Below are positions 1,596 to 57,922 of a DNA stretch of 64,000 bases, in pieces. Both the position numbers and the translations under genes were made by a program. Within the stretch, counting starts at the first letter, position 1; every line of letters starts with the position of its first letter. A model generated the notes under the pieces. The model did not search any database, was not told the origin of the DNA, and saw only the letters and a program-made list of their open reading frames with translations. Origin of the DNA: a virus; IMG/VR virus record IMGVR_UViG_3300009506_000001, positions 32,001 to 96,000 of that record. One strand, given 5' to 3'.

Positions 1596-3812
1596 TTAGA
1601 TCTCAGCCCCAGTAGAGACGATTCTGATTGGTATATAAATGAATTCAGCAGCCTTGACTGGCTTCAATGCCACGTCAATGTACATCTCGTTACGGTCAAT
1701 ACGAGCTGGTGTATTATTTGTTTCATCACAAATCGTAGCAAAGTCATACAAACCACGCTTGACGACGATGTCGCTCAAGAATGCATCCACAACAGCCTTC
1801 AAGTTATTACGTGTTAGCTGATCGTTTGGCTGGAACACAAAGCTCATTGTATTCTTACGTAGCTGACGACGGATGTACGCAATCAGACGAGTAACATTGA
1901 TGCGGTCAAGAGCACTTGCATCTGGTGCAGATGTCTTCTGACCCCAAACCAGAATACCACGACCTGGGAAGAACGCAATTGGGTTAACATTGACAAAGTA
2001 GCGATATAGATCGTCACGCTGTCCCTGATCAACATAAGTTGGAACAAATGTTGTTGGTAGTCCGAGAGTACCGGACACATAACCAAGCTCAGATACGCCT
2101 GTAACAAGACCACGACGAGTACCTGCTGGTGCAAACCAAACCTCAGAAACGCTGTCACTGTATGCCCAAGTCTTCAGTGCTGTACCAGAAGGAGCTACAA
2201 CAATCTCCTTACCATCGACATTTGTAACAACCTGCCATGGGTAGTAGTAAGAGATCAAGTTACTTGATGCACGATCTGCTGTCTGTGCCCAAGCAACAGC
2301 CTGGGAAGGTGTCATGTAAGAAGGTGTGTCACCAATTACAACAGCCTCCTGCTTGATAGCATTGCTAACTGCTAGATCAACTAGCTCAGCATTTGTTTCC
2401 CAGTAACCTGGGCAAACGATAATGTTGTATTCAAAGTTCTCAGAGCGAACATCGCTGTTACCAACAATCTCTGCCTGTAGAGCTGTCACAATAGCCGTAC
2501 GACGGGCAGCATCGTTAGCACCTAGGCTTGTTAGGTTAAAGAACTCATGTGTGTACTTGTAGTCATCTGCAGCAGCGATCAGATCGTCTGCAGCATCCTG
2601 TGCTGTCCACTCTTCTGGGAAGGATGGATTAGAACCAGCACCTGGGAATGTACCATCGGAACCTGGACCAACTGTATCACCGTTTGCATTAATGTTATTG
2701 GTTGTACCAGAACGACCTTCGATACCAACATATGGTGGTGCAACTGCTGGCTGGTCAAAGCCGTTAGGAAATACATCCAAACCACCGGTTAGAGAGGAGT
2801 CATCCTCAAATGTTGCTTCTACGTTTGAGAAGGAATACAGAGGATAAACAACATCGGTCATTGCATCGTTTAGCAGAGATAGGTACTCGGAAGAATCAAT
2901 TGTCTCCTTGTAACCATCAACACCGGTTGTAGTTGTTGCTGTGTAGCCATCTGGGCTACCTGGAACCATTGTCTGGAAGAAGCCAGGAGTTGTCATAACA
3001 ACAGATGTGCTAGAACCTAGCTCTGTACCACCACCGTTAACAGCATCGCTCTTGATCTGGATGGCACCAGATACTAGTGTTGCTGTTGCAGCAGAGCCAA
3101 GCTGGGCATTAATGTCATTTAGTAGCGATCCAACATTGTGAACGTCTGGAGAACCTGCTGGTGTACCACCTGGGGAACCAACACCTGGAAGTGGGGAACC
3201 TGTTGGTGCACTCAAAGTTAGGACAATTGGAGTACCATCAACAGTAACTGTGGCTGTATCACCTGCAACAACGTTTAGCACTGTTGCATTTGTCAAAGCT
3301 GCCGTGTAAGATAAAGTAACGTAGGCATTTACCCAAGGATCACCTGGGAACTTCTGGTTTGTTAGGTTTGTCTCTGTAAGGTAAGTATTGACAAGGTTTT
3401 CCAATACAAAGGAAGCTTCCGTAACCTTCGTATCCCAAAGGGTGCGAAGATTGTCAATGTTGTCATCAAGGTTAACATTTGCACGAACCACATATGCAAG
3501 GGAACCCTGATTCAAATACTGTTGCAGAGCAGCCAGACCGTACTCGTTACGAGCATCGCCATCGTGACGGTTTCCAGAAGAATCTTCTAGGAAAGCTGGA
3601 ACACCGTAAAGTTCCAGAGCTGTCTTCTGAGAAGTAACGGTTCGAACAACACCACTCTCATAAGTGCCTGGTGCTGGCGTCACACCGTCCTGCTGGACTT
3701 TTTCATCCTGTGTTGCGATGAAGAACAAAGGAACTGTGGAAGAGCCTGCTGGAATGAAAAAGCTCTCATCAGTTACCGTTACACTTACACCTGGGCTTAC
3801 TAATGTTGCCAT
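1596..3812 (-). CDS. gp18: Contractile tail sheath protein with an inserted surface domain
   Basis: MATLVSPGVSV start; WFAPAG..RG, WGQKT, LDRINVTRL, ICDETNNTP..IDRN, KPVKAAEFIYIP motifs. Confidence 0.96.
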   Translation of the reverse strand: MATLVSPGVSVTVTDESFFIPAGSSTVPLFFIATQDEKVQQDGVTPAPGTYESGVVRTVTSQKTALELYGVPAFLEDSSGNRHDGDARNEYGLAALQQYLNQGSLAYVVRANVNLDDNIDNLRTLWDTKVTEASFVLENLVNTYLTETNLTNQKFPGDPWVNAYVTLSYTAALTNATVLNVVAGDTATVTVDGTPIVLTLSAPTGSPLPGVGSPGGTPAGSPDVHNVGSLLNDINAQLGSAATATLVSGAIQIKSDAVNGGGTELGSSTSVVMTTPGFFQTMVPGSPDGYTATTTTGVDGYKETIDSSEYLSLLNDAMTDVVYPLYSFSNVEATFEDDSSLTGGLDVFPNGFDQPAVAPPYVGIEGRSGTTNNINANGDTVGPGSDGTFPGAGSNPSFPEEWTAQDAADDLIAAADDYKYTHEFFNLTSLGANDAARRTAIVTALQAEIVGNSDVRSENFEYNIIVCPGYWETNAELVDLAVSNAIKQEAVVIGDTPSYMTPSQAVAWAQTADRASSNLISYYYPWQVVTNVDGKEIVVAPSGTALKTWAYSDSVSEVWFAPAGTRRGLVTGVSELGYVSGTLGLPTTFVPTYVDQGQRDDLYRYFVNVNPIAFFPGRGILVWGQKTSAPDASALDRINVTRLIAYIRRQLRKNTMSFVFQPNDQLTRNNLKAVVDAFLSDIVVKRGLYDFATICDETNNTPARIDRNEMYIDVALKPVKAAEFIYIPIRIVSTGAEI

Positions 3813-3867
3813 TTTTGTTTCTCCTTACTAGAAATCCTTTACTTTGTATTGTTTAAGATTGTACCTA

Positions 3868-3875
3868 TATTTATA
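3868..3875 (-). promoter_or_regulatory. T4-type late promoter TATAAATA
   Basis: Exact motif upstream of the sheath gene. Confidence 0.8.
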
Positions 3876-3884
3876 TGCGGGACC

Positions 3885-7012: not shown

Positions 7013-10000
7013 TTAACCTATGATAAACTCGTTGTGCATGCCGTACTCTTCGACATTGTTTGTGACGTTGTCCATGATTTCCTGTAGCAACAGTTCTTGC
7101 TCATCCTTTGCTTCCTGTGCTAGATCAGAGGCATTCAAGGAAACACCACCACCTGCACCTGGCAACGAACCATACTTACCACGGATCTGTGCAAGCATCT
7201 TCTTGCATTCAGATACTGCCCATCTTTCAATCCAACGTCCCGTGAAGCGATCAGTTAGTAGCTCCTGCTCTGTTCTTTCTACTGCCACGTCCATTAAGAT
7301 TGTTTCACCTATTGAAAATCTCTGATGTAGTGTTAGTGCACGAGCTGCTTCATTCCAATGGAATCCTAAACGGGAAGCAAATAGATGTTCCATCTGTTCA
7401 ATGTATTCACTCACCAAATGGAAACTTAACAGATCAAACGTTCCCATGTTGTACAAGTGCTGAAGAACAACCTGACCAAATACACCTGAACCGTGTGCAC
7501 TTGACAAGAAAGCAGAAGTAACACGGAAGCAACCCATAACCTGAACAATCTTATCAAAGCCATACTGTCCATCAGGCAACGTGTAACCCTGTCCTTCATT
7601 ATCATCGTCTGCATCTGGTTTTGTTAGCTTATAGATTTGCTTGCCTGGCTCAATGTACAGCTTCATGAAACCACGATGATAACCAGAACCACTATGTCGA
7701 CGCAATTCCTTCAAAGCAATATCAATTGCCTTGTACATCTGGTTCTTTGTTAGCTCCACTTCTACAGTTGGATAGCCAAGCAAGAACAAAATCTCATTCA
7801 TCATCTCACGACGCTCATCCTGAGATCCATCTGTACCAATACCCTCCTGTTCGTAAGAAGGGATGCAAGATAGTCCATCTGTACCTGCCAATGGGCAGTG
7901 AATTGTTGGCTGTGGACTGAATGCAAACATCAATTCGTTTAGGTTTGGATCTTTCGATAGATCAACCAATGAATCATTACCGGTTGAACCAGTTGTGAAA
8001 ACAATCGTTGTGGATGATGCAATGGCTGCGGTTGCAATAGCAGAGGCCGCAACCCATGTTGTTCCATCCCATTCCTTCAAGGTATTTGTTGCCAAATCAA
8101 ACCACAAATCACCCGTATCTGGTGTCAATGGTGTCGTACTGAAGATAATGTTAACCCAGTTTGTACCATTCCACATCGACAGCGTAGAGTGTTGTGTATC
8201 ATACCAGAAGGTTCCTGCAGGGAGCGTTGCCTGTGAAGGATCATCTGGAGAATCCACTGGATTAAACTCTACCCATGCCCCTGCAACAAGCTCTGACCAT
8301 TCTCCTGTTGTTGGATTATACCATACCGTTCCATTTGCAACAGAGGTTGGATCAGTTGGAGATGAAATGAATGTAGCCTCTTGCCACTTTGTACCATCCC
8401 AAACATACATGAGCTCTGTTGCACTGCTGTACCAAACGACCCCTGCTGGGAGAGCAATATCAGCTGTTGGATCAAGCGTACTTTGTGTGAAACTTACAAC
8501 TGGTACCCATGCACCTGCAACTGAGTCCCAAACATTTAGTACGTCTGTGTCAGAGTTCCACCACGTATCACAAGACTCTATGTCAGTTGGATCTACACCA
8601 TAGACGATTGCACACTGAGAAACCCAAGCTGTATTTGCTCCATTACGTTGGAACACTTCACCATCATTGTTAACCCAATACTGATTAGCAGTTGGACTCG
8701 TAGGTTTTGCTCCAACCGTCAATAGCTCACCTATAACTGTTGATCCTGTAGAGCTGTAGTCGGCAAGCGATGTAAACAAGTTTCCACCAGCTGTGATTAC
8801 TGGCTCCGACTCATCTGCACTAATTAGTCGAACTGTTGTTGATGGCTGCGAACCAACAAAACCAATTGTTGCAAGTAAATTAAGTGGTGACTGATCGCCC
8901 AGCTGAGCATTAATAGCTGCGAATACTTTATCAAATCGACCATCGGTTGCATTGCAGACGTTTACAACAATGTTGAAAACCTCACCACCAACAGTAATTG
9001 TTTCGGTGTACTCACCAACTGCCAATGCCAAGTCACTTGCAGAGTGTCCTGCACCAAGTGTAAAGTCAATGTAACTTCTTCCGATTGGATTCCAGATTCC
9101 AACAACCGGTGTATCATATTGCCACAATAGGCTATTGATATCATCAAACCAATATGTACCAGCCGTTAATGCTGTTGGATCTTCGTTCCAGTATAAAGCT
9201 TCGATTTCTTCCCACGTGCAAGTGTCTTCGTTGTATTGGCGAAGGAGAAGGTCTGTAGGATTATACCAATAGTAACCACAGTTGGCTGTAACACCAACTG
9301 ATGGATCTGTTGTCTGGTCATATAGTGTATCTTCACACCATACGTTACCACACCAATGGAATGCTGCTGATGGGGATCCTGAACGGTACCAATAGTCGGT
9401 CCCACTCAAGTTTACTGTTAGTAGTGGATCCTTTGAGTATCGTAGAATCTGACTCTCAGGGATTACATCCCAAGAAGCACCATTCCACTGATATAGAATA
9501 TCATCGTCATTGTCATACCAGTAATTGCCAACTGCTAGTGCGGTTGGATCCGTAGGCTCATTAAGCACAGGGATTTCAGTGTGCTCATAGCCATCCCACT
9601 GATAGAGGACACCTGTTGTTGTATTATAATAGTAGGAGTTTGTATTAGGTGGTATAGTACTCTGTGGAGCCGTTGTAAGCTGTTCCAATTGAACATTAAT
9701 GGCATCAATAAGATCTGCATATGTCTGTGCATCGGAACCATTTACAATAATTGTGTACTCTGTGCCATCGATCTCCATTAACATGGAGTAGTCTCGACCA
9801 GCTGTCAATCCTGTTCCATCCGTTGGCTCAAAAGCAGTTGCCCATTCAACAGTAACTGTACCAGCTGTATCTGGTGTGCTCTGCAAACACTTGTCTAGGG
9901 AGTAGGCATATACACCTTCGCAGTGATAACGGTTTTCACAATCAACAGCATAAGCATTGACGAAATATGCAACACCTTCTTGCATGCCTGTGATATCAAG

Positions 10001-10354
10001 AGTCGTGGTAAAGGTTCCACCTGTACCTTTTTCAACGCATTCGTAGAAGGCACCAACCACCAGAGCTGTCCCAATAACATCTCCTACGTGCAGATCGCTG
10101 TCTGCTGTTGGATCGGCAGTATATTGCGTTCCATTCGTTGGACACGGCGTATCACGGTTTGCACCAACAGTATCGATTGTGATAACGATACCACCGTAAG
10201 CCTGATTTTCAGATGTACACCCTAATGCTGGAGGTGGAATGTTCCACGAAATACGACCAGTTGTAGCACTCGTACGATCGAGTGTTACTGTGATTTCACG
10301 GCCCTCTTGAATGATCAGGTTTGGTGCATCAGCAAAAGCGTCAAATGTTCCCAT
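7013..10354 (-). CDS. Neck protein (gp13-like C-terminus) with a large Trp-rich repeat N-terminal region
   Basis: C-terminal LGYPTVEVEL, IRGKYGSLPG.GG.VSLN, FIIG end; many W(Y/F)xxxxxLxxWxG repeats. Confidence 0.8.
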   Translation of the reverse strand: MGTFDAFADAPNLIIQEGREITVTLDRTSATTGRISWNIPPPALGCTSENQAYGGIVITIDTVGANRDTPCPTNGTQYTADPTADSDLHVGDVIGTALVVGAFYECVEKGTGGTFTTTLDITGMQEGVAYFVNAYAVDCENRYHCEGVYAYSLDKCLQSTPDTAGTVTVEWATAFEPTDGTGLTAGRDYSMLMEIDGTEYTIIVNGSDAQTYADLIDAINVQLEQLTTAPQSTIPPNTNSYYYNTTTGVLYQWDGYEHTEIPVLNEPTDPTALAVGNYWYDNDDDILYQWNGASWDVIPESQILRYSKDPLLTVNLSGTDYWYRSGSPSAAFHWCGNVWCEDTLYDQTTDPSVGVTANCGYYWYNPTDLLLRQYNEDTCTWEEIEALYWNEDPTALTAGTYWFDDINSLLWQYDTPVVGIWNPIGRSYIDFTLGAGHSASDLALAVGEYTETITVGGEVFNIVVNVCNATDGRFDKVFAAINAQLGDQSPLNLLATIGFVGSQPSTTVRLISADESEPVITAGGNLFTSLADYSSTGSTVIGELLTVGAKPTSPTANQYWVNNDGEVFQRNGANTAWVSQCAIVYGVDPTDIESCDTWWNSDTDVLNVWDSVAGAWVPVVSFTQSTLDPTADIALPAGVVWYSSATELMYVWDGTKWQEATFISSPTDPTSVANGTVWYNPTTGEWSELVAGAWVEFNPVDSPDDPSQATLPAGTFWYDTQHSTLSMWNGTNWVNIIFSTTPLTPDTGDLWFDLATNTLKEWDGTTWVAASAIATAAIASSTTIVFTTGSTGNDSLVDLSKDPNLNELMFAFSPQPTIHCPLAGTDGLSCIPSYEQEGIGTDGSQDERREMMNEILFLLGYPTVEVELTKNQMYKAIDIALKELRRHSGSGYHRGFMKLYIEPGKQIYKLTKPDADDDNEGQGYTLPDGQYGFDKIVQVMGCFRVTSAFLSSAHGSGVFGQVVLQHLYNMGTFDLLSFHLVSEYIEQMEHLFASRLGFHWNEAARALTLHQRFSIGETILMDVAVERTEQELLTDRFTGRWIERWAVSECKKMLAQIRGKYGSLPGAGGGVSLNASDLAQEAKDEQELLLQEIMDNVTNNVEEYGMHNEFIIG

Positions 10355-15225: not shown

Positions 15226-15438
15226 TTATGCAACAACTGCATATGTGGCAATATCGTACCAGTCGGCAGCTTCACCTGCTGGGGAGCCAGCAGCCTGACG
15301 TGCAACTGCAACTGCACCCAAACCACCATTTGCATCAGATACAAAAACCAAGTTACCAAGATAATCAGCTGCTACAGGTAGAGTTGCTAGTGTATACGAG
15401 ACCAGTTGAGCTGGACGTCCATTATTTAATAGTGCCAT
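15226..15438 (-). CDS. 70-aa putative capsid decoration protein, paralog 2
   Basis: MALLNNGRPAQLVSYTLATLP...; near-duplicate of 15465-15677; AAGGAA RBS. Confidence 0.7.
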   Translation of the reverse strand: MALLNNGRPAQLVSYTLATLPVAADYLGNLVFVSDANGGLGAVAVARQAAGSPAGEAADWYDIATYAVVA

Positions 15439-15464
15439 TTGCGTATTCCTTTTAAAACTTTGTA

Positions 15465-15677
15465 TTAGGCTACAACTGTGTAGTCGACAACATCGACCCA
15501 TTCAGCAGCTTCACCAATTGGAGAACCACTGGTGTAACGTGCAACTGCAACTGCACCCAAACCACCATTTGCATCAGATACGTAGACCAAGCTGCCAACG
15601 TGCAGTGCAGCTGCTGGTAGAGTTGCTAGCGTGTAAGAGACCAGCTCAGCTGGACGTCCGTTATTTAATAGTGCCAT
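15465..15677 (-). CDS. 70-aa putative capsid decoration protein, paralog 1
   Basis: YTLATLPAAA..G.LVYVSDA motif; late promoter at 15720-15727; located in the head cluster. Confidence 0.7.
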   Translation of the reverse strand: MALLNNGRPAELVSYTLATLPAAALHVGSLVYVSDANGGLGAVAVARYTSGSPIGEAAEWVDVVDYTVVA

Positions 15678-18275: not shown

Positions 18276-18305
18276 GTTCATCTCCTCAAGAAGTTATAAC
18301 GGTAT

Positions 18306-22758: not shown

Positions 22759-22793
22759 CGCTGAAAACAGGAACTCATGAAGACATCATCAAG

Positions 22794-22976
22794 ATGTTTA
22801 ATGAGATGGACAGGTCAGTTAAGAACCTTCTCAAATCTGTCATCCAATTGGTTTACTTTATGAACGGCTCAATACAATACGACGACATGATGTGGAGAAC
22901 GCCCTTTGAAAGGGATCTAATGGAAGAGTTTGTTATAGAGCACTTGAACGCAAAGGCCAAAGCATTGAAACGATAG
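22794..22976 (+). CDS. Baseplate hub assembly catalyst (gp51-like), probably the C-terminal part of a frameshift product
   Basis: LVYFMNGSIQYDDMMWRTPFERD pattern; no clear RBS. Confidence 0.65.
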   Translation: MFNEMDRSVKNLLKSVIQLVYFMNGSIQYDDMMWRTPFERDLMEEFVIEHLNAKAKALKR

Positions 22977-23000
22977 GATCTGGTTTTCAGCGATCCAACA

Positions 23001-23028
23001 AAAACGGCCCGAAGGGCCGTTTTCTTTT
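23001..23028. terminator. Bidirectional intrinsic terminator
   Basis: AAAACGGCCC-GAA-GGGCCGTTTT between convergent genes. Confidence 0.85.
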
Positions 23029-30574: not shown

Positions 30575-30578
30575 CAGA

Positions 30579-30586: not shown

Positions 30587-30612
30587 TCTCAACAGGATAC
30601 GAGGAGAACTCC

Positions 30613-48500: not shown

Positions 48501-48608
48501 ACTGCGGCACTGCCATACCAGCACCGATATGCAGATTTGTTTAAGACATCTTTCATCGCATTGCATGGTATTAGAATTTTGGAAACATCAGGACTGTTTG
48601 ATGATTAA
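39558..48608 (+). CDS. Giant 3016-aa baseplate/tail structural protein (gp7-like wedge with many inserted domains)
   Basis: FNWAPPIDFDKLINYRNYYW, YPLFDLFD, PHFEPW; Trp-rich repeats; late promoter at 39522-39529. Confidence 0.75.
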   Translation: MTDNSDYTKPRTNLYDLLPEVYKSGVNRSVLEASINRFLTKSQTDRVIGYIGQGNPNAAINRQIAEPTPQRQAYQLQPMIYSKIGTVEHMASFKDIENELTRLGVDPLLMQEWGDALAFNWAPPIDFDKLINYRNYYWYNEEDPTEDPQYLTIRSDCVRAQAALDEYNLLLDTIGALHAIVGLDAMNHTISIATDLTGTFTEGFIFYVKNSTNSTINAEFYTVVSSAYNAGSDATVITVNVSGSPVFDDSIIDGDVSLEEGVNIYEAARDCFCAGEVGWSGGLWDDNQVGTVIWNTQLILSISYPNEAAWLAAHCPGSPTCPEETNLWYDTSTDELKQYNGSAWVVVQRNFGSILAVTTGGNTWDYSKQCHFASNDWITQNKWLHQNQVPNFSIAKQAQIPIIEFISTIELNAWTKITYIWQYRPASTEPWESAAVARPNLFELIGVDTYTIDVGLQEIVFDARYGDLTPFLEAGTEIILDGTTDNDGTYTIDYSFFCEEVAGQKYQTRIRLVETLTSTTADGIITPAYTSRGDAYEGVHVHWSFVQEDEAFPTVYIPLNPMLELPTNPPLPAVADTYWQYTLGLFAEEILATTKSLGTLTIIGASSGSPTYWEIAGDHTAAFSDPNLIGVGGTITVSGNLGGGNTDYTITSVSLVGGNTRIGVAGSIPAAAVAATTKGELFAHWTFTFDSSLRDETLEGTNDLRVYIEDTRQYGNYDEIAVTGSPTPDCSYVGGILIRAPLEQYQMLRVEVGAAACCDIGYNWVGVRTNTDDGSFNPATDLECVSLVQFKKLEQVKSETNQYPLFDLFDVEGNPLNVASRIFAFQESQSYPVNTLVNKRIVTSSDGRDYYFEQYLTPEDNGVLYAYREASNSFWYDSDNEILYQWKNGTWNPKIVTTDFSTSSTTACYVAPVVSNMVPGSPYIDVDGMLWFNTNNNSVYVSDGSSWTLNSLITADVVISDADPGLNSIWRTGPTDTSCADSETYVPEWVDGDRNPLTVGDPNGDWEIPDQLYFNPLHENRKVLSYTDLYTHFTSVINAQDVPPGFLGTPAEMFHAILDVNYGAGGTMKEYNNSYDTFLSSIFNQTVNPVELYEFAHDAYENAISQLKEYFRRDASVTMVDTTPSTVADLSTALTDAILFLYESNDIASLVYGDTTAYNATTGLGVKNWPATLPFFDMVYKVEPQQIYDPTIGLNEILHHDGHYSHIEFNPTTIETANRRIISTTDTRSSNPTGKMGAAVASTPPDSFLAYQTMFGNTSALYWYDTSNSRNRIMYRMSAVAVGEIAPAIDLAEGAFWYDTAVNQLKILQSGSWVNDPSVGPGYLSDISNGYYGAWELIDFNKLFSDVIYNTETRLWEAAPEDPTLVFDFDTTFAEDPVLTDQLFEEQFASFVSQAEILDPYANEEYMSDDPYTWNYKTATVSGSPPSLMPQVGASYVSGGDWRDVYQKQLGTPYPHFEPWVLQGYYTKPDWWDTSYPAVAGRRWSSAMWTNIVSGIVPAGELLADGSVSTGVAGEATQYNYIPVNMDTGVVKDGAGNTYSPDALLPPVTILPITKGGIPSIYPIRSIWTAYAQVPNAADDYNYDDAGTVEWAWENSSQYLYDSLKVAFKIQPIRFIHSTLGIDFVYVGCLNVDQNTQKVYAHQNTLFHGDLQPDNTIFRVPGTLQWYTNYNRASGYDISSSNFRRMWSGWDTYLSYQFSTVIDTTSLILSSTIFDVVEEDYQVTLKRSPGIEDHTVDALKVSILKSPPTLINQDTQSQWTFNVSSYSPTGRPMPYYGSQTYNFTVDIGTDVLTLTDVYGRTAPWTDGQAVYLSSTEFLPSPLLADTPYYVTKVAANQYTLSTSPGGPIVDILSAGTGTQSIFQVQSTFTALEGATTSANWYHVELDTDLVLTATPPTQINGFQNLISFIDGYAAYAAEVDNFRFNHAVTDIDAATGKVTNWQLEEERLINWAYSSRKAERFRRDQYPVTALASTDTFTYSEQAPGGWTTGTVVDVFTEGTLPQPLVPNTTYYIIQDTSSTFKLAITSRNARNGIAIDLLTDGVGDLYVRAALSAQTAPTFEVNPFKYNLWIATPEGIVSDLVKGPFADVRTNQLLLDQYGTQLPSSDVLPLREDQLTRINVQEGIENTVSPIAPPGFELYNNLHLTSAHIYIDGYEHVILFQDYAATGNVIYDSFLGLNTAKFDIQMDRSTEFSFRPNLGGFVLVDNSNTTGRSRFSRNIEGQVDDLRYAYDTYRTVESNRIVAEARASLGYDGARDYLNAININPKSQFIFWRGMIQQKGSVNSVKAFINSRRFVDAKIDEYWARKIADFGNANEYTLPEVQLFASDGNLTELRLEFVDPNETASTGFIGISNNDQDRWYEYPNQKEFFDANGNMYFNAEATSLDDSPSFVLFGGHYYYETPEICDTVVATYYNFDGSPHTDQTERLIEGVDYIRVNSRLIDFGTTNPTTVWPNLKVYTINPAEQRHNPAKVRDAVDDLTLTNVIIWDPARGHHYPQAIQLVDVTGPSDPALIQYGYSDSIDPAQTAVGSPASQYPYGSNAVNTTWLDSSLLAFVPYSDTAVFTDTFERLRRWGKLADFGDYKMYQWTESDVPPSEYNAIAEEQEGDITIAESQRVNGRVREVVYEGDGGSPIGWTEYPFEVEEYASRIVYGAPSFTISSAHPATLYVNGLLVGTFTSSAAISAEISGLDYTDADHIHVAKYYPTDADIDDITWKKDTPYTTEQKVIDGEPVTKYYFWVGEKTVRQTYRNKAVTMVEAQIQLNKVPVPYVIVQNIDTAGSPTPSVVIPRRYTQAIIRGLSAYVNADDRYTLRFTRDFTYRDNLSTTDPLYGPDSIQNRHQEWSIFRQEQQYSIDRDLWNILTESIIGQTLASLGGTAVRVPSLNKELYDDENDTSTRIGFGDGQAFCDGASGWEAILSYLQDGSNDFAPIDINTFFDTWDPLSLTPRDSTDAQTIADMMDDIYNTFTYENVNRMWFSALLTAALPYQHRYADLFKTSFIALHGIRILETSGLFDD

Positions 48609-48619
48609 TGGAGAGATAA

Positions 48620-49726
48620 ATGGTAACTACAATTGATCCAGTAGCCGGGTTAGTTTCTTATGTAGAAGAAATCAAACCTTACCACTCAAAAATTATTGAG
48701 GTATTAGTTGAGTACATCCACACGGACTGTATTGATGTTACTATCACTGAAGACTTTGAGTTGGCACTGGGTGTTCCAGCAGATGTCTCGGCCTGGGGTT
48801 GGACCGAAGAAGAAGCTAACCGAATGTTCAATGACAACTGGACAAACTACCAGTTATCAGGAGCAAGTTCATCCGGTGGTTATTGGGAGATTAATGGAAA
48901 GTTTGACGCTGACTTTGTGCTCGGTGACAAAATCCTAATCAAGAATGAATACGGTTTTCGTGAGTACACCGTTACTAGTGCACTAGCATTAACAGCATCG
49001 GTGAATGGTACAACGGTTTACACAACACGTATCTACGTATCTGAAACGATTCCAGCTTCTGTGGATGCCACCATTGGTTCTCCACCACAACAAGTTCCTA
49101 TTGCGGGTGCAATTTTTCATTCAACTGCATATGCCTACGACGCTAATATAAACACTTATACATTGAAAGCTGGGCTTGTGTTTCCATCCCCTGCTGGAGT
49201 CGAGGAGCATGCCAACTGTGGTGGTTTTGGTACACAATTTGAAAGCGTGCTTCAGTCTGCAGCATTGGTTCCAAATTCCATTTTGGCCATCAATGCGGGC
49301 CTACGATATTTTGAGATAAGCAACACCCTTGCCGCACCAATATCGGGTGCCAGTACATGGGCAGATATCTTGAAGTATGGTGTGAAGTTTAACGTGTCCG
49401 GCACCGCCAGTGACGGCGAGTATACGGCATTTCTATCCGTTCCAAGTGGAGGCTCTCCGGATATCCTGAGAGTGTATGTACTCGAGGCAATCGCCTCCTC
49501 TGCGGGTGCAGGTGGCACTTTAACGGTACGAGAGTGGGGCTATGACGAACCGGACGTTTGCACAAATCAGGGCCAGTCGCTTGCTTTGGAATCCCGTGTT
49601 AGCGAAGTGGCCTCCATTGAGATAAACGACGTTTATTATAACTTCCTACATGGGTGGGATATGGGTCACTGGGACCTGGGTGGGTATGATGGTGGACCGT
49701 TCACTGTTATCATAACGTCCACCTAA
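48620..49726 (+). CDS. Baseplate structural protein
   Basis: YVEEIKPYHSKI motif; GWD..WD..GYD tail; operonic. Confidence 0.65.
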   Translation: MVTTIDPVAGLVSYVEEIKPYHSKIIEVLVEYIHTDCIDVTITEDFELALGVPADVSAWGWTEEEANRMFNDNWTNYQLSGASSSGGYWEINGKFDADFVLGDKILIKNEYGFREYTVTSALALTASVNGTTVYTTRIYVSETIPASVDATIGSPPQQVPIAGAIFHSTAYAYDANINTYTLKAGLVFPSPAGVEEHANCGGFGTQFESVLQSAALVPNSILAINAGLRYFEISNTLAAPISGASTWADILKYGVKFNVSGTASDGEYTAFLSVPSGGSPDILRVYVLEAIASSAGAGGTLTVREWGYDEPDVCTNQGQSLALESRVSEVASIEINDVYYNFLHGWDMGHWDLGGYDGGPFTVIITST

Positions 49727-49747
49727 ATATAGCGATAGGAAGGGCAC

Positions 49748-50728
49748 ATGGCACGAATCAATTTCAGACAGGGCATAGTACGAACTCATGCAACAGCGTT
49801 ACAGTTTACAGCTGGGAACACTGTTATTCTTTTGGATGGACAGACCGCCCCTGTTGTGCTTAACTTTGCTGATGGCCCAAATGATGACTACCTATGGGAA
49901 GAAGCTCTGCTAGTTGATCCAGCTTGGACCGATTTACCATCGGCAAATGAGTATTGGTTGTACATTGACATTGATAAGATGACGGCTGAGCGTACCTTTG
50001 GTACAACCATCTACCAGCCACTTGATCAGCCAAACACACCAAGCAACCCTGCTGTTGGTCAGCATTGGTTTGATACAAGATCCACCCAGACTGTGATGAA
50101 GGTCTGGGCAGGTTCAAGGTGGACAGAAAAAGTTCGTATGTTTGTGGCAAAGGTTAGTGGTTTAACTATCTTCCCATACAGCACGGGCACACAAGCAGGA
50201 TTAAATGATAGTGTTCTATCAGGTCGTATTCTCTATGACGACGAAAACAGAACACAACCTATCAAGAAATATGATAGACGAGGACAAGGAAAATTCATTA
50301 CAACTGAGTCTGTGATTTTTTCACAGTTCTCAAACATAACAGGCTTTAAGGTTGCTCAGGGACTCGTAGAAGGTCAAGCAATTGAAAACATTCCGCAATA
50401 TTACGCAGTCGCTCTTAGAGGAGGTGAATACAAGATCGGACTGGCAAAAAACGGAACGAGTGGTGGAGCACAGCCAGGACCTTATCCAGCAATTGGTATT
50501 GCTACGGAAGATTTTGTTACAGGCGAGACGCATACGTATGCGGCAAATGGTTATATCACCGACGACAATTTCAATTGGATAGAGGACCCTGGTACATATA
50601 TTTTTGTGGGACCGACGGGGCAGTTAACAACAAGTGTACCACAATCAGGATCACTTCAGCGTGTTGGGGTTGTTATCAATACGTATACGATCCAGATCGA
50701 CATACAACCAATTATAATTTACGGATAA
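49748..50728 (+). CDS. Virion structural protein
   Basis: GQHWFDT Trp repeat; C-terminal IGIATE...GTYIFVGPTGQLT cement-like module. Confidence 0.65.
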   Translation: MARINFRQGIVRTHATALQFTAGNTVILLDGQTAPVVLNFADGPNDDYLWEEALLVDPAWTDLPSANEYWLYIDIDKMTAERTFGTTIYQPLDQPNTPSNPAVGQHWFDTRSTQTVMKVWAGSRWTEKVRMFVAKVSGLTIFPYSTGTQAGLNDSVLSGRILYDDENRTQPIKKYDRRGQGKFITTESVIFSQFSNITGFKVAQGLVEGQAIENIPQYYAVALRGGEYKIGLAKNGTSGGAQPGPYPAIGIATEDFVTGETHTYAANGYITDDNFNWIEDPGTYIFVGPTGQLTTSVPQSGSLQRVGVVINTYTIQIDIQPIIIYG

Positions 50729-50731
50729 GCC

Positions 50732-51034
50732 ATGGCTAACTATGTAGACTTACTACTTGATAAAGACACTGGTAAAATAGTTGCCAAGGGTGGTGTCACT
50801 GGTGGTAGTGGTGGTGGTTCTGGTAAGGGATACCTCTATGAACAACTGGTAGCCGCAACGACATGGACAATAACACACGGACTTGCCTCTGACCAAGTTC
50901 TTGTGCAAGTCTACGATGAAGTTGGAGAAATGGTACTTCCCGACTCCATTGAGATCACAGATACAACAACCGTTACAATTACATTTCTTGATGCGATGGC
51001 TGGAACGGCTCATTTGATATTCTTTACGGTTTAA
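50732..51034 (+). CDS. Small virion protein with a W-x-I-x-H-x-L beta domain
   Basis: TTWTITHGL...VQVYD...P..I...TVTITF. Confidence 0.7.
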   Translation: MANYVDLLLDKDTGKIVAKGGVTGGSGGGSGKGYLYEQLVAATTWTITHGLASDQVLVQVYDEVGEMVLPDSIEITDTTTVTITFLDAMAGTAHLIFFTV

Positions 51035-51036
51035 TC

Positions 51037-52848
51037 ATGCAGATTAATGGCAATCTAAAATTTAGAACATTAGGCAAAGGTGAGTTGCAAAATGCAATCA
51101 TTGAACGCCTTGCATCTGCCCCAATAGGTGAACCGGGACGAATTTACTTCAATACGACCGATAATTTCTACTACTTCTTTGGTGCAGGTTCCCCAGCCGT
51201 ATGGGAAAAGATTGCACCAGGTTCTATTGCTAGTAACTTATTATTGGCGATGGGCTACGTAAATGTCGATGGTACATTCAATGCAAGTACATTTTCAACA
51301 TTCGCCGTTATTGGTTCACCAATCTCAAACCTAGTTGACGTACTACAGGCACTCGATTCACAATTCTGCCCTGCACTTTTGGATTTCTGCACTGTGGGAG
51401 CAACAACAGCAGCAGATCAGTTCTACTACAGTACCGCAGCTGGAACACTTGCTTTAGGAACAATAACAGCCGCAGGTCGTGCACTTGTTGACGACGCTGA
51501 CGCTGCCACGCAGCGTACGACACTGGGACTTGTTGCAGGAGGTGCAGGGGACATTTGGGTTGAGAAGGCTGGTGATACAATGACTGGTGTTCTATCGATG
51601 TCAACAGGCACATATATCACCATTCCTGATTTGCCCGCAAATCCAACCGATGCAACCAACAAAAACTATGTTGACCAGATTGCTTCTAGTATTCGTTGGC
51701 GTGAACCAGTTCAAGATCCAGATCTAGTAGATATTGTTTCAGCTGAACCGGTAGCTGATGTAACCGCAGTTGGTGATACTGTTACGTATATTAAGTGGGG
51801 TGGAACACAAGGTGAAATGTGGGGAGTTGGTTCTCCAGGTTCCGTTACAAATGTTGTAAATGGAGACATCCTTACATATAAACTTACAGATGCTGGAAGC
51901 CCGTTAGCTGGCACATGGGTCCGTATAGGAACTTTGGTAGCGGGCTCCCGTTTTATTATTGCTGCGGAGCATGGTCATATTCATTCGAGCCTCGCATTGC
52001 TTGGTTTCAACAACTATGATCTTATTGAATATGTAGATGGTGGTGGCTCACCAGGAACAAATCCTTACACAGCTGGTGCATGGACTCGTCCGGAGGGACT
52101 TGCAAATGTGGGTTCACCATCTCCAATAGATGGTTCACCAAACAACGAAATTCCTAATGGTACAACCGTACTGTGTAGTAACAGTCTTTCTTACCATGCT
52201 GGACATTCGTACTCCTATGACAGAATATCGGCTTCATGGATTGAAATATCAGGCCCAGGTGCTGTTCAGGCAGGCACTGGACTATCTTACAGTGGAAATA
52301 TTTTAAATGTAAACCTTGGTGCTGGTATTATTGAGTCACCAGCAGATGAAGTTGGTATTGATCTTTATGATACCGTAACAGGTGCAATTATTTTAACGAC
52401 AGATGGGACAACACGTTCAACAGCTGCAAATTCACAACTGCAACTACTGCTAACTCCATCGGGTGGATTGGTGCAGGATGCAACAGGCCTATCAGTTGAT
52501 CTTGCACTTGGTGGTTTGAATAATGTTACCGATACAGGTGCAGCCGCAGGCAATGTTCCAGTTGTATCAGACGGTAGCCCACTAGCATACACAGCTCAAG
52601 CACTACAGTTTAACTATGACTCGACCCTACACGGCGGTGCTGCAACAAGCCACACCATAACGCATAATTTGGGTCAGCAATTTGTGAATCCAACAGTATA
52701 CCTGCAGGACAGCAGCCCTCTGACATACAGACAAATTATTCCACAGAGTGTTACGTTGGATAGTGTAAACCAGCTAACTGTTACGTTTAACAAGGCAATC
52801 AACTGTGTGGTTGTGGTAATGGGTGTTCCAGGGGTGGGCCTAGCATAG
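51037..52848 (+). CDS. Tail-fibre-like virion protein
   Basis: KAGDTMTG, DATNKNYVD, AGTGL fibre motifs; C-terminal THNLG domain. Confidence 0.75.
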   Translation: MQINGNLKFRTLGKGELQNAIIERLASAPIGEPGRIYFNTTDNFYYFFGAGSPAVWEKIAPGSIASNLLLAMGYVNVDGTFNASTFSTFAVIGSPISNLVDVLQALDSQFCPALLDFCTVGATTAADQFYYSTAAGTLALGTITAAGRALVDDADAATQRTTLGLVAGGAGDIWVEKAGDTMTGVLSMSTGTYITIPDLPANPTDATNKNYVDQIASSIRWREPVQDPDLVDIVSAEPVADVTAVGDTVTYIKWGGTQGEMWGVGSPGSVTNVVNGDILTYKLTDAGSPLAGTWVRIGTLVAGSRFIIAAEHGHIHSSLALLGFNNYDLIEYVDGGGSPGTNPYTAGAWTRPEGLANVGSPSPIDGSPNNEIPNGTTVLCSNSLSYHAGHSYSYDRISASWIEISGPGAVQAGTGLSYSGNILNVNLGAGIIESPADEVGIDLYDTVTGAIILTTDGTTRSTAANSQLQLLLTPSGGLVQDATGLSVDLALGGLNNVTDTGAAAGNVPVVSDGSPLAYTAQALQFNYDSTLHGGAATSHTITHNLGQQFVNPTVYLQDSSPLTYRQIIPQSVTLDSVNQLTVTFNKAINCVVVVMGVPGVGLA

Positions 52849-52861
52849 GATAAATATTAAG

Positions 52862-53524
52862 ATGGAAATATATGGTGACTTAAATTTTAAGGAGGTGGGA
52901 CAGTTAGTTGCAGCTGCACTTCAAGAAGAGAGCATGGCTCAGTTCCCAGATGCTGTTGCAAGCTTTGCTGTGGGTGCAATTAAGCAAGGTCGCCTTGCCT
53001 TCTTCAACAACCGTGTATGGATTGCAGTAATACTTACGGCAAATGGAAGTCCAGTTGAAGAAATAGCAACCTGGGTTCCAATCACCAATGAAATAAATGC
53101 ACACGTACATACACAGCCAGTAGCATCAACCCTGTGGACCGTTTCACACAATCTTATTGCTGGTACCCCTGCAGTTCAGGTCTATGACAATACTAATGAA
53201 ATGGTTATTCCAACAAACATAATTCCAATTGATAGCAACACAGTATCGATAGAATTTGATACACCTGTTTCTGGTCGTGCTATTGTGTTGAAAGGAATAT
53301 TTGATGGTAATCAACCTCAAGCACAGCTTTTTGCGTTTGAGGAAACAATCTCTGTAGCATCTAATACTTGGGTAATTGGTCATGGCCTAGGACGGTATCC
53401 AATCGTACGTGTATTCCTTGATACAAATGAAGAAATACAACCAGCATCAATTGTTCACGATAGTTTGATGCAAGTAACAATAACATTTAGCTCTGCACAA
53501 GTAGGTACAGTAAGGTTAGTATAA
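52862..53524 (+). CDS. Virion protein with two H-x-L beta domains
   Basis: WTVSHNL... and WVIGHGLG...; TAAATA at 52851. Confidence 0.7.
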   Translation: MEIYGDLNFKEVGQLVAAALQEESMAQFPDAVASFAVGAIKQGRLAFFNNRVWIAVILTANGSPVEEIATWVPITNEINAHVHTQPVASTLWTVSHNLIAGTPAVQVYDNTNEMVIPTNIIPIDSNTVSIEFDTPVSGRAIVLKGIFDGNQPQAQLFAFEETISVASNTWVIGHGLGRYPIVRVFLDTNEEIQPASIVHDSLMQVTITFSSAQVGTVRLV

Positions 53525-53745
53525 TGCCACAGATTACTATTACAAAAGCATATACGGAAACCTTTGCAGCTTCTACAACTTGGGTTGTTCAGCATCGCCT
53601 GGGCACTATTGCTCCTGTTGTGGATTGTTGGTCAGGTGGTAGTCCAGATGAAAAGATGATGCCAGTTTCGGTTGTTGCAAATTCACCAAGCAAAGTGACG
53701 ATTACTTGGTCTGTACCAACAACAGGAAGGGTATATGTGGTTTAA
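53524..53745 (+). CDS. Small virion protein (single H-x-LG domain)
   Basis: TTWVVQHRLG...; coupled to the upstream stop. Confidence 0.7.
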   Translation: MPQITITKAYTETFAASTTWVVQHRLGTIAPVVDCWSGGSPDEKMMPVSVVANSPSKVTITWSVPTTGRVYVV

Positions 53746-53754
53746 GGATTTGAC

Positions 53755-53985
53755 ATGGTAGCAGGATACGATCATACACAGTCATCACCATCCACAACGT
53801 GGACGATTACGCACTCATTGGGGACAACTAATGTTGCAATCGATGCCATTTTGTCATACAATGGCTCGCCTGCCACAGTAGAAAAAGTTATTCCACTGCA
53901 TTTTATTGTGGTGGATGCAAATACAATTAAGGTTTTATTTTCAGCGGCTCAGAAGGGATATGCAAGAGTTGTTGGTGGGGTTTAA
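53755..53985 (+). CDS. Small virion protein (single H-x-LG domain)
   Basis: TTWTITHSLG...; AAGGA RBS. Confidence 0.7.
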   Translation: MVAGYDHTQSSPSTTWTITHSLGTTNVAIDAILSYNGSPATVEKVIPLHFIVVDANTIKVLFSAAQKGYARVVGGV

Positions 53986-53999
53986 CGGAGGAAAGGATA

Positions 54000-54437
54000 A
54001 TGCTTTTTGATACAATTACGTACATAACTGGTGCCGATCACAACTACGATCTTGCAGGTAGTACGCTGCAGACGCCAACAGCTGGTAGTACAATAATGCG
54101 AATAACAGCTATACGAGCATTCTTGTTACCACAGAATCTTGTTGGTAGCGCAATCGATGCCCAAACAGGACCATCGTCCCCTGCTGGTTCGCCAATTAGC
54201 AACCTTGCTGTTGACATTCGTGTAAATGGTATTTCACAAGGAATATTCTCATTTACGGGCGTTGTTGGTAGTCCAATTCCAGCACTGAGTTCACTAATGT
54301 CGGCCGCAGATAGCATCACAGGAACATTGGCGTCAGGAGATGTTAGTGTTGCGGTTGGTGATATTGTGGAAATGGTGCTGAATACTGTTGCTAGTGCAGA
54401 TGCGATTTCGGTCACAATCAAGACTTTAGCTGCGTAA
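54000..54437 (+). CDS. Putative virion protein
   Basis: GGAGG RBS; beta-rich; operonic. Confidence 0.65.
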   Translation: MLFDTITYITGADHNYDLAGSTLQTPTAGSTIMRITAIRAFLLPQNLVGSAIDAQTGPSSPAGSPISNLAVDIRVNGISQGIFSFTGVVGSPIPALSSLMSAADSITGTLASGDVSVAVGDIVEMVLNTVASADAISVTIKTLAA

Positions 54438-54482
54438 ACCTCCTGGCATAAATACATAAAATACAGTTTAGGAGCTGATCAA

Positions 54483-55649
54483 ATGAAAGAAAGTTTACCG
54501 ATCGTCGTTGAGGGTCATGTTCACATCGAAGACGACCTTGGAAATGTCCTTTTGGACAAGAAGAATGCTGTGCATCCGCAGAATTTGGCCCGTGTCATAT
54601 CCCGTGCTCTTTCCAATGAAAGCAACTATTTCATCTATCGAATAGCATATGGAAATGGTGGAACCGTCGTTGATCCAACAGGTCTGGTCAACTTCAAGAC
54701 CCCAAACGATGGGCTTCCACCAGATCTTCAGGAATGGCGTTCCCGTTTGTACAATGAGACGTATTCGGAAATCATCGATGACAGCAATTCTAATATTGGT
54801 ATTGATCCAGGCTCCATTGGTACCTCTGTTTCCCGTCCAGGTGGTGGTTCAAACCCAGATGGCGATCCAGCAACAGTTACTCACGTTTCTGGCCCAGGTG
54901 TTCGTAGCCAAGAATTGGGTGTTCTATCACAGGTAGTTATTGCATCTACAATCAACCCAACAGAGCCAACAGGGCAGATTAGCTCCGACCTAGATCCAAA
55001 CCCTGGCACATCCGGTGACGCTGTTGAGAACACAGATGGTACGTTTGTGTTTGATGAACTTGGTCTATATACGACAGGTGCAGGTGCATCGGACAGTAAT
55101 GCTTACCACCAGATTGATGTTGGAGACAAAACCGCCCAAGATGATACCGGTCTCGTAAGTGGTACTACATATGACTTCCAGTATGATGCTGGTGCTGGTA
55201 CTGTTGTTACATCTGTGACACCAATAGGCACAGGTGGTGGCTCTCCAGCAGTTGTTACCTACCAAGATTTGATTGATGCATTGAATGCAGTGCTTCCATC
55301 AGGCCCTTCTGGTGTTGTTGCCTCCATCACAAACAATGAAGTTATCCCAACAGTTAACACATTTGGTTATCTACAGTTCACCACAAATGCAACTGGAGCA
55401 AGTGCAACGATAACTGTGAATAACACAGGTGCAACTCCACTATTCACGGCCCTTGGGCAGACTACACCTCTGACCAACAACGCACCAGTTGCTGGTGAAG
55501 ATGCAGGTGTTCAGAATAATGCGACGGCCCCTGCAACAGAGCGTGAGCGTTTGCTAACACACGTTATCTTCTCACCTGTTTTGAAGTCTGCAAATAGAAC
55601 ACTATCGATTACATATACACTAACTGTAAGTGTTGCTCGATCCTCATGA
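54483..55649 (+). CDS. Baseplate protein (gp8-like) with an inserted domain
   Basis: GHVHI..KKNAVH, GNGGT, FVFDELGLY, LLTHVIFSPVLKSANR; late promoter at 54447-54454. Confidence 0.7.
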   Translation: MKESLPIVVEGHVHIEDDLGNVLLDKKNAVHPQNLARVISRALSNESNYFIYRIAYGNGGTVVDPTGLVNFKTPNDGLPPDLQEWRSRLYNETYSEIIDDSNSNIGIDPGSIGTSVSRPGGGSNPDGDPATVTHVSGPGVRSQELGVLSQVVIASTINPTEPTGQISSDLDPNPGTSGDAVENTDGTFVFDELGLYTTGAGASDSNAYHQIDVGDKTAQDDTGLVSGTTYDFQYDAGAGTVVTSVTPIGTGGGSPAVVTYQDLIDALNAVLPSGPSGVVASITNNEVIPTVNTFGYLQFTTNATGASATITVNNTGATPLFTALGQTTPLTNNAPVAGEDAGVQNNATAPATERERLLTHVIFSPVLKSANRTLSITYTLTVSVARSS

Positions 55650-56179
55650 CAGTATTAACGCTGCCATATGATCAAGCTCGTAGCTTAATCATTGACGGTG
55701 ATATTGTTTTCATTAAGGACAGCCCGAGTTGGGTAGGCAGTGTCATTCGCTTTTTCACCAAATCTAGATATTCCCATGTTGGTATTGCCTTTTGGATTAC
55801 TACGGGTGGTATAACACGGTTAATGATGGTTGAAGCACAGGGTGGAAGTCGTCGACGTATCGTAAATCTAAGCAAGTATGCTGGTGTGGAACTGGATATA
55901 ATGAAGGCACCAAAACCTTGGCCAGATGTTGCACCTCGTGCCTTGGAACACCTAAGTGATGTTCCGTATGGATATATGGAAGCAGCTTATATTGGAATAG
56001 TAGAGGCAATGCAACAGTATTTTGATGTTACACTTCCACGAAAGAATTTTAATGGTGAAATTTGTTCTGAATTTGTAGCCCGTGTTCTGGAGCTACCTTC
56101 CCAGCATGTTAGCCCACAAGCACTGATGGATCAGTTGGTTGAAATGGGCGTCAAGCCTGGCTTACTGGTGAGAGGGTAG
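55646..56179 (+). CDS. Permuted papain-like NlpC/P60 enzyme (YiiX/YaeF family)
   Basis: GDIVF...IRFFTKSRYSHVGI...EA...PY...CSEFVA (His before Cys). Confidence 0.85.
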   Translation: MTVLTLPYDQARSLIIDGDIVFIKDSPSWVGSVIRFFTKSRYSHVGIAFWITTGGITRLMMVEAQGGSRRRIVNLSKYAGVELDIMKAPKPWPDVAPRALEHLSDVPYGYMEAAYIGIVEAMQQYFDVTLPRKNFNGEICSEFVARVLELPSQHVSPQALMDQLVEMGVKPGLLVRG

Positions 56180-56217
56180 CCGAAACTACCCCCTCATTTC
56201 CCTGTAACTCCCGTCCC

Positions 56218-56613
56218 TTACTTCTTCGCAGGAGCTTTCTCAGCAGCAGGAGCATTGCGTGGAGCAATACGTGGTGCAGCAGCACCAATACGACCCATCT
56301 GAGGATTCATAACCTTACCACTTGGAGTTAGAACCTTAACATACTGGTGGAAATAGTCAAGTGAGTTTGCACCATTTCCAAGAGTAACATTGCTCATCAA
56401 ATCCCATAGCTCATACATGTGAGCGTTACGGTTGGTGATGATGCGGAACAAACGCTGCTTATCGATACCATCCATCTGGTCGAGACGGATGAAGTACAAG
56501 CCCGTGTTGGATTCCTTGACAACGGCAACCTCAGTGAGAATGCCCTGGCCTTCTAGATCTACCCAGCCAACATGTGGGTATTTTCCCTTGATTACATTAA
56601 TTGCTTCTGACAT
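56218..56613 (-). CDS. Hypothetical late protein
   Basis: Start at MSEAIN after an AGGAG RBS; TAAATA at 56658-56663. Confidence 0.7.
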   Translation of the reverse strand: MSEAINVIKGKYPHVGWVDLEGQGILTEVAVVKESNTGLYFIRLDQMDGIDKQRLFRIITNRNAHMYELWDLMSNVTLGNGANSLDYFHQYVKVLTPSGKVMNPQMGRIGAAAPRIAPRNAPAAEKAPAKK

Positions 56614-56689
56614 TTTGTGTCTCCTTTGGTTGCGAATTAACAGTTTTTTGTTACCATTATTTAGAGACCGCAAAAGGAGGGGTTACCAA

Positions 56690-57922
56690 TTACCCAAGTT
56701 TAATTAGGCCGGAGGTATAGGAATTTGAGCTAGTTTGGGTCAAAACACTATTACGTAATCCTGGCGAACTGTCCGATTTTGTGCTGATGTGTATCCAGGG
56801 GTTTCTGGCAAACCATTCGAGGATCAGCTGATCAAACTTAATGTTATCTCGAATATATTGTGCACGGGAGTAGTAGGTATCACCAGTTGAGGCTGTTCCA
56901 TGAATGTCAAGGAACTGTATATCAGCAGCCTGCCCTAGGTCGTGTTGGCTACTACCGGAACCATTTCGCCATCCAGATGTAATTACCATTGTGTGTGTTG
57001 GTGTTGGACTACCGGCATCGATAGCAGTTAAACCATACGTGGTGTCATCACTATTTCTGTAGAGTGCGTATATTGGTTCAAGTACAGTATTAGCGAGATA
57101 GCAGAGGTTTCGAAGAATCTCTTTTTGTGTTAGTCCACACGCCTGTGTAACAGAGGATGTAAACTCATAGCTACTAACAAATGCATCAACAGTTAGATCT
57201 GCTAAAGTGAAATTAGCTGAGAGCTGCACCTCAGGCCACGTTCCAGGGGTTCGAGCCCAAGTTGCAAAGGTTGGTGGTTGTGGTGAACCAGTTGGGTGCG
57301 ATGCCCAGTTAAAATTATCGGGGAGTGCCTCAATCACAGCACATGTATAAGGAGTCGGTGTATTTGAGACCGTTGTATTATCTGTGGCAAGCACCTCAAC
57401 TGGTCGAGGTGTTGTATTGGGAGGTAGGTTAGGAGGTGAGCCAACATTTAGTGGATCGTCATTGTGGACAACGACATGTGCATCTGCTCGTGTAAAGTTT
57501 TCCTTTGTTTGAATCGTGTTCACATTTAAAGGAGACCCGTAAGGAAGAGCTGTTAGACCATCGGTACTACCGTACGAGTTCATTGGTGGATTGTGGTCAG
57601 CAATTGCACCAGCACCACCAGCACACAAAAATACATTGCTTGAACCACCAACACGAGTGTGTCCGCAAGAGTCCACATTTCCAGTAAAGTTTACTTTATC
57701 AGTTACACCAGCACCACCGGCAAAGACCGTTGGACAGCCTTGTTGTGTTACCCAGTTACCTGCACAGTGGATGTTGCCATGATCACAGGCACTGTCAGAG
57801 GTGCCAACGGAACCGTCAATGGCAACAAGCAGTGTATTTGCATAAACGGTTGTATTTGGCGATACATTATTAATTGCACCACCTGCACTATTGGCATCGC
57901 CTATTCGTTGAATTGCTGGCAT
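56690..57922 (-). CDS. PAAR-like spike-tip protein fused to a peptidase M15-family domain
   Basis: N-terminal MPAIQRIGD...H...DSCGH...GSSNVF; C-terminal LSANFTL.DL, ITSGWR..SSQHDLGQAAD, DQLILE..WIHIS. Confidence 0.85.
   Translation of the reverse strand: MPAIQRIGDANSAGGAINNVSPNTTVYANTLLVAIDGSVGTSDSACDHGNIHCAGNWVTQQGCPTVFAGGAGVTDKVNFTGNVDSCGHTRVGGSSNVFLCAGGAGAIADHNPPMNSYGSTDGLTALPYGSPLNVNTIQTKENFTRADAHVVVHNDDPLNVGSPPNLPPNTTPRPVEVLATDNTTVSNTPTPYTCAVIEALPDNFNWASHPTGSPQPPTFATWARTPGTWPEVQLSANFTLADLTVDAFVSSYEFTSSVTQACGLTQKEILRNLCYLANTVLEPIYALYRNSDDTTYGLTAIDAGSPTPTHTMVITSGWRNGSGSSQHDLGQAADIQFLDIHGTASTGDTYYSRAQYIRDNIKFDQLILEWFARNPWIHISTKSDSSPGLRNSVLTQTSSNSYTSGLIKLG

Follow-up and report, generated by a model that had tools for sequence, protein, structure and literature searches.

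A Gly-Ser-Pro tripeptide in the outer virion proteins of a T4-like jumbo phage as a candidate sequon for O-glycosylation

Why should a phage place the same three residues, Gly-Ser-Pro (GSP), in so many proteins of its particle? The question is raised by a 64,000-nucleotide stretch of viral DNA, called the window below, which comprises bases 32,001-96,000 of the 155,245-bp linear viral contig IMGVR_UViG_3300009506_000001 (G000), estimated to be 44% complete. (Labels beginning with G denote whole contigs or genomes, and those beginning with L individual loci.) The original prediction, made from the letters of the window, had proposed that GSP is a sequon for an enzyme that modifies the virion surface, or else a binding site for an accessory protein. 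The analysis described here shows that the outer particle proteins carry the exact tripeptide about 14 times above chance. We consider it probable, at roughly 0.6, that GSP is an acceptor sequon for Ser O-glycosylation of these proteins by phage enzymes, which would give the particle a glycan coat.

The contig derives from a T4-like jumbo phage of the Rak2/XacN1 group, as judged from its gp18-like tail sheath and related core genes. Sheath identity to the closest isolates, which are jumbo phages CM1, RsoM2USA, Xoo-sp13, XacN1 and Rak2-group phages, is 45-59%. The best-matching public run was a marine-sediment metagenome, possibly the source sample, and Logan contigs of this run were identical to window positions 51655-53982 and 54005-56548, in the fibre region. 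Nothing usable was found for extending the contig beyond its ends.

Excess, specificity and placement of the tripeptide

The original prediction had counted 38 GSP tripeptides in 14 open reading frames (ORFs) of the window, and a recount agreed gene by gene; these ORFs total 8,369 amino acids (aa), for which 2.6 copies are expected from the composition of each protein. When all 62 window ORFs were taken, with no preselection of GSP-bearing genes, 38 copies stood against 4.6 expected (P~1e-21), and the highest count in 1000 shuffles was 13. The motif continues beyond the window, with 72 copies in the whole 155-kb contig against 10.3 expected (log10P -35) or 19 expected from a dipeptide model, and the runner-up tripeptide in the contig reached only log10P -6. 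The excess was therefore upheld against shuffled controls in the window and, as given below, against permutations of the motif in the contig. A 221-aa gene with one further GSP (G000 22,418-23,083, plus strand) had been missed by the gene caller, bringing the contig total to at least 73.

Each of the three positions is specific. Before SP only G is enriched, within GxP only S, and after GS only P, while the five permutations of G, S and P have counts of 8-18 in the contig. The wider xSP motif was not enriched in the genomes compared; the turn-type motifs GTP, DSP, NSP and ASP and the G/S/P permutations were not enriched either. The claim that codons vary freely was borne out, with Ser encoded by TCN 54 times and by AGY 18 times, and with all four Gly and all four Pro codons in use. 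Because Ser comes from either codon family, the excess is not a DNA repeat. A repeat or mobile insertion was likewise rejected on direct comparison, as the copies have diverse codons, unrelated flanks and no common nucleotide sequence, and at the protein level the flanks have nothing in common except small residues. Counting GSP codons as a DNA pattern gave poor separation of genomes.

The copies are concentrated in the outer virion module, a class assigned partly by gene position and thus not fully independent, in which 29 proteins of the contig hold 70 GSP against 4.9 expected. As had been claimed, the internal parts are free of the motif: 18 internal and assembly proteins, including the major capsid protein, have none (1.35 expected). 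The other 140 contig ORFs hold two copies (3.9 expected); for the non-virion ORFs of the window the original prediction had given one. For this phage the description of the motif as virion-wide was overstated, because many outer proteins carry GSP but the major capsid protein and several module proteins (326, 100 and 557 aa) do not.

The tail sheath (738 aa; window 1596-3812, minus strand), identified by its Pfam sheath match and T4 gp18 fold, has four GSP, at residues 205, 212, 220 and 285. All four lie within a lineage-specific inserted domain (approximately residues 164-295) and, on an AlphaFold model, in coil or loop segments of that domain; column conservation over residues 150-300 is about 0.1-0.2. 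Among 34 sheath and 77 capsid relatives, GSP is found almost only in variable loops, and it has arisen independently, at other loops from one lineage to the next. In the major capsid proteins of relatives these loops lie near residues 134, 153, 171-174 and 399, and L046 has up to seven clustered copies within a single loop.

Ortholog alignment, at 54-90% identity, showed that GSP sites behave as insertions of 3-6 residues. Most sites are retained while neighbouring residues change; some are lost, and others arise elsewhere. The two GSP of a 145-aa protein (window 54000-54437, plus strand) are exactly the 6- and 3-residue insertions missing in orthologs of 60-63% identity; a single-sequence AlphaFold model of this protein, with a predicted local distance difference test score (pLDDT) of 36, was not used. 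The large baseplate protein (3016 aa; 39558-48608, plus strand) carries 10 GSP along its whole chain, and comparison with a 70%-identical ortholog revealed sites that were retained, gained and lost. Orthologs of the fibre-like protein (603 aa; 51037-52848, plus strand), which has 8 GSP, hold 4-8 copies at 54-71% identity, some of them at other loops. No fold requires any given site, yet the genome retains many, from which we infer that something acting in trans reads the motif. Protein-level selection on GSP as a motif read in trans is well supported, and to this extent the original proposal of a sequon or binding site holds; no modifying enzyme was found in the contig fragment. The acceptor Ser residues would lie in exposed loops of outer proteins, judging from the model and alignments, and would probably be exposed in the assembled virion as well.

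A sugar cluster that accompanies the motif in relatives

Whole contigs of relatives fall into two groups, with GSP at 3-11 times expectation or at about 1 time. Observed and expected counts for the positive group are 72/10 in G000, 32/4 in G003, 75/6.7 in G008, 46/10 in G009, 19/3.6 in G011, 29/4 in G014, 87/16 in G032 and 23/7 in G033, and the contigs at about expectation are G005, G006, G007, G010, G013, G034 and G037. G012 (8 vs 5.8) and G069 (approximately four GSP near its large baseplate gene, in partial loci) are ambiguous, and G020 and G070, scored on partial loci only, are GSP-poor there. On a tree of eight markers the trait needs two changes, with the negative G010 nested among positive genomes. 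One gain and one loss is the simplest reading, but the branch that joins both positive groups is unsupported (54/22). Since the trait is strongly tied to clade and has changed few times, correlations between genes and the trait rest on few events.

In the complete GSP-positive relative G032, a sugar cluster (44,286-51,328) combines a pair of PF01973-type genes with a GT8-like gene, a radical-SAM gene and methyltransferases. In the GSP-negative G010 the cluster is gone, and the genes that flank the cluster site are adjacent. A profile was built from the shorter Maf-like gene (about 215 aa, GT42/Maf-like, PF01973) and used to search viral contigs. Its best viral matches were contigs from the samples of G008, G009 and G011, and a homolog lookup identified a Maf-like contig from the sample of G033. 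The GC content of the sample-linked contig pairs is 0.356/0.360, 0.457/0.453, 0.409/0.390 and 0.394/0.405, and the neighbouring genes are clade-typical. In G032, L625 and L627 the Maf-like gene is in cis with GSP proteins; L627 is from the sample of G011. The profile had no match in G010 (90% complete), G037 (92%) or G020 and G070 (100%). Sample 3300009506, which holds an 81-85% relative, gave no Maf-like contig among the 80 matches kept, and this was not counted as an absence. The Maf-like genes that track the trait form one branch (Shimodaira-Hasegawa-like approximate likelihood ratio test 97) with an order roughly as in the phage tree. Acceptor motif and transferase genes are thus co-distributed, although there are only some two independent events behind this and the PrkA cassette discussed below is a confounder.

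The Maf-like gene usually lies within a cluster; its partners there vary by genome and include GT8-like, GT25, GT32, methyltransferase, sulfotransferase, epimerase, NTP transferase and radical-SAM genes. Near gp30.3 the cluster has a different gene mix in each genome, resembling an O-antigen locus (L619-L623, L625, L626, L709 and L728). The two G032 paralogs score 37.4 bits against PF01973 in Pfam (above the cut-off) and 22.6 bits (below it), the lower score being that of the GSP-tracking paralog. The nearest solved structures to the profile are, weakly, CstII-type sialyltransferases (E 0.004), and the solved Maf 5mu5 is at E 0.86. The phage proteins are 206-270 aa long, compared with 666 aa for 5mu5, and do not have the size of a multi-domain enzyme of about 600 aa.

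Of the modifications originally named, Ser O-glycosylation gained comparative support from the co-distributed Maf/GT42-like gene and sugar cluster of relatives. Maf enzymes O-glycosylate surface-exposed Ser/Thr in the cytoplasm (bioRxiv 10.1101/2020.06.03.131540). If O-glycosylation applies here, the sugar cluster would be located in the unsequenced approximately 56% of the genome. In the host cytoplasm, before or during assembly, one cluster transferase would prime the Ser of GSP, and the remaining cluster enzymes would extend or decorate the glycan, with the variable genes setting its make-up. The sheath, neck, baseplate and fibres would thereby gain a variable coat of sugars, which might change surface charge or hide the particle from proteases, grazers or adsorption to sediment.

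Several observations weigh against this proposal. A check of the rest of the sequence for glycosyltransferases gave no glycosyltransferase or PF01973 match in the 155-kb contig (44% complete). The links of G008, G009 and G033 to the Maf-like gene are through sample and GC content, not contiguity, and the roughly two independent events that carry the correlation are fitted equally well by the PrkA cassette. A single phage domain of about 215 aa could act on sugars and not on serine, and no sequon for Maf is described in the preprint cited above. Distant Maf-like genes (26-39%), in D3, CcrColossus, XacN1 and distant metagenomic loci, occur without clear GSP excess, and a 958-aa protein of the GSP-negative G005 includes a PF01973 domain. 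The general rule that any Maf-like gene implies GSP was rejected on D3, CcrColossus, XacN1, LR756500 and the distant metagenomic loci, none with a clear GSP excess.

Two of these isolates have Maf-like genes in noteworthy positions. In D3-like phages a Maf/sialyltransferase-like gene, orf7 of Pseudomonas phage D3 (L602, 5951-6409), directly follows the major head gene, and there is no GSP excess. In XacN1 (L497, 251-264 kb) the unannotated Maf-like/GT8-like ORF373-375 adjoin long putative fibre genes; the putative-fibre region is Thr-Pro-rich, with 161 TPT against 16 expected in 50 kb, and has GSP at chance. XacN1 is therefore a culturable test case for virion glycosylation.

A more far-reaching form of the O-glycosylation proposal is that a sediment jumbo phage lineage has its own sequon-directed system, in which a small transferase recognises GSP wherever a loop exposes it, and an exchangeable O-antigen-like cluster sets the glycan. 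We hold this tentatively, at a little short of even odds. If true, the phages would come in 'serotypes', and the three residues would form a portable tag for glycosylation.

Other possible readers of the motif, and other genes of the contig

It is possible that GSP is read by an enzyme of a common host group, such as a cytoplasmic glycosyltransferase or kinase, and that the phage clusters serve otherwise or only extend the glycan. A precedent is the host-encoded enzyme reported to modify a phage tail protein (PMC13445384). The finding of no writer in the contig would fit a host enzyme, and if the G010 lineage had switched host, its loss of several traits together would be accounted for, but the phage cluster follows the GSP trait, and its inheritance roughly parallels the phage tree. 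As we also know of no bacterial GSP-specific enzyme, this explanation is considered unlikely.

The genes found to track the trait are the Maf-like gene, a few small non-virion genes and a PrkA(YeaG)-YeaH-SpoVR cassette. This cassette is intact in the contig at 134,444-139,345 (L005/L006), where it lies beyond the window and is flanked by PhoH and a MazG-like gene. It occupies the same site in every GSP-positive relative that covers it (G000, G003, G009, G032 and G033) and is also present in G068 and G074; it is missing from the site in G010, G006, G007, G013, G069 and G070, and from the complete G020. PrkA is annotated as a serine kinase, and within the clade the cassette fits the trait as well as the sugar cluster does, so that it may phosphorylate or otherwise recognise GSP. 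However, the cassette occurs without GSP excess in G037 (16 vs 13.8) and in Ralstonia phage RsoM2USA (8 vs 6.2, over 100 kb of structural region), and it may merely mark the clade or host group. PrkA belongs to the AAA+ stress proteins; its activity as a kinase is disputed, and the targets reported for it are metabolic. Phosphorylation, which the original prediction had offered, thus has a co-distributed candidate, but given the PrkA-bearing phages lacking GSP excess its chances appear slim.

GSP-positive relatives alone have small stand-alone proteins between thyA and DHFR (L004 11851-12219, minus strand; G032 236,003-236,649), one of which weakly matches the C-terminal region of the tail sheath (PHROG 23, E 6e-5). 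Three further candidate writers were rejected because they occur in GSP-negative relatives too: a 2-oxoglutarate-Fe(II) oxygenase, a permuted papain-like C92 gene that closes the baseplate/fibre operon (window 55646-56179, plus strand) and, less firmly, a cytidyltransferase-like gene (window 30538-31221).

We give an equally small chance to the possibility that the GSP loops, without being modified, dock an accessory protein of the virion, for instance a cementing protein or hair-like fibres. Related jumbo phages are known to bear hairy appendages, and the motif is both placed in loops of outer proteins and spread over many parts of the particle. Because the flanks are alike only in small residues, though, docking would have to rely on a surface of just three residues; none of the genes that track the trait encodes a virion protein, and the up to seven copies clustered in one loop of L046 suit a density of modification better than a stoichiometric interface. 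Least probable of all is a favoured turn that stiffens or protects loops with no reader. Turns commonly contain Gly, Ser and Pro, a Ser-Pro bond withstands many proteases, and single GSP sites are dispensable in orthologs. Yet the equivalent turn motifs are not enriched, the same proteins in sister lineages are at chance levels, and the excess appears and disappears across whole genomes as a single trait.

The remaining structural genes of the window are as follows. A neck-region protein (1113 aa; 7013-10354, minus strand) has one GSP, at residue 326, and its orthologs in GSP-positive relatives have 0-5. In the GSP-free major capsid protein (12580-14043, minus strand) ASP and NSP occupy the corresponding loops. 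Short additional paralogs of the major capsid protein were observed far from the head genes, at L620 12100-12738, L709 12937-13602 and G032 24,225 and 323,016. Two paralogous proteins of about 70 aa (15226-15677, minus strand), each with one GSP, are putative capsid decoration proteins, by their position between the protease and scaffold genes only. On the plus strand are a baseplate wedge protein of 1058 aa with one GSP (36317-39493), called gp6-like from the original prediction and gene order, and a 368-aa baseplate-module protein with two (48620-49726). These are followed beyond the fibre-like gene by three small paralogs of 220, 73 and 76 aa (52862-53985), each with one GSP in a short loop insertion, and by a gp8-like protein of 388 aa (54483-55649), the single GSP of which is SSP in two orthologs. 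The 368-aa protein, the small paralogs and the gp8-like protein were, like the baseplate and fibre proteins above, both counted and compared with orthologs. A PAAR-like/peptidase protein (410 aa; 56690-57922, minus strand) has four GSP and is named from the PAAR Pfam match of the syntenic gene of a relative.

Some other genes were noted in passing. Signal-peptide-like N-termini occur in two proteins, encoded at window 17436-18281 (minus strand) and G000 152,837-153,388; the former is encoded between the portal gene and the protease gene, and none of the relatives compared has a homolog of it. A metacaspase (Peptidase_C14) gene at G000 148,751-149,848 is also present in G009 and G012, and jumbo phage G032 has a glutamate-receptor-like ion channel gene (SBP_bac_3, Ion_trans_2, Lig_chan) at 107,966-108,982 (L304).

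Relation to known systems

Literature searches returned no description of the GSP motif in phages, nor of PrkA/SpoVR in phages. Among tailed phages only a few actinophages are, to our knowledge, established cases of virion glycosylation, and no cytoplasmic O-glycosylation system of bacteria is known to us that uses an exact sequon of three residues. If one tag works across more than 25 unrelated folds, it would reveal the way in which phages coat entire particles, would allow modified virions to be predicted from metagenomic sequence, and could serve as a compact means of directing glycosylation to chosen sites in bacteria. The O-glycosylation proposal is testable without phage culture, using the small acceptors (73-145 aa), the natural GSP-free orthologs and the complete relative with candidate enzymes.

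Virion glycosylation in mycobacteriophages (Freeman et al. 2023, PMID 37329881, as cited in PMC12619734) is similar to the proposed system in that a glycan coat would cover the virion surface. The two differ in that the tag here is an internal tripeptide in more than 25 proteins, with a tube free of GSP. In mycobacteriophages the glycan reportedly acts as a shield and is added by phage-encoded glycosyltransferases, capsid and tail-tube subunits being modified at their C-termini. With Maf (PF01973/DUF115) and the GT42 enzyme CstII the likeness lies in a PF01973-positive protein of the relatives whose profile weakly resembles CstII; in contrast, the phage protein is about one third as long as 5mu5 (215 aa against 666 aa), its acceptors would be virion proteins, and its gene is absent from the sequenced part of the contig. 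XacN1 belongs to the same broad phage group (sheath 51% identical) and has Maf-like and GT8-like homologs beside virion genes, but its repeats are mucin-like Thr-Pro repeats, GSP is at chance, and ORF373-375 are without annotated function. The glycan shields of enveloped viruses are built by the host on N-X-S/T sequons and are Asn-linked, whereas GSP is a Ser-centred exact tripeptide of a bacteriophage. Both, however, are short motifs of surface loops whose number is kept while single sites shift.

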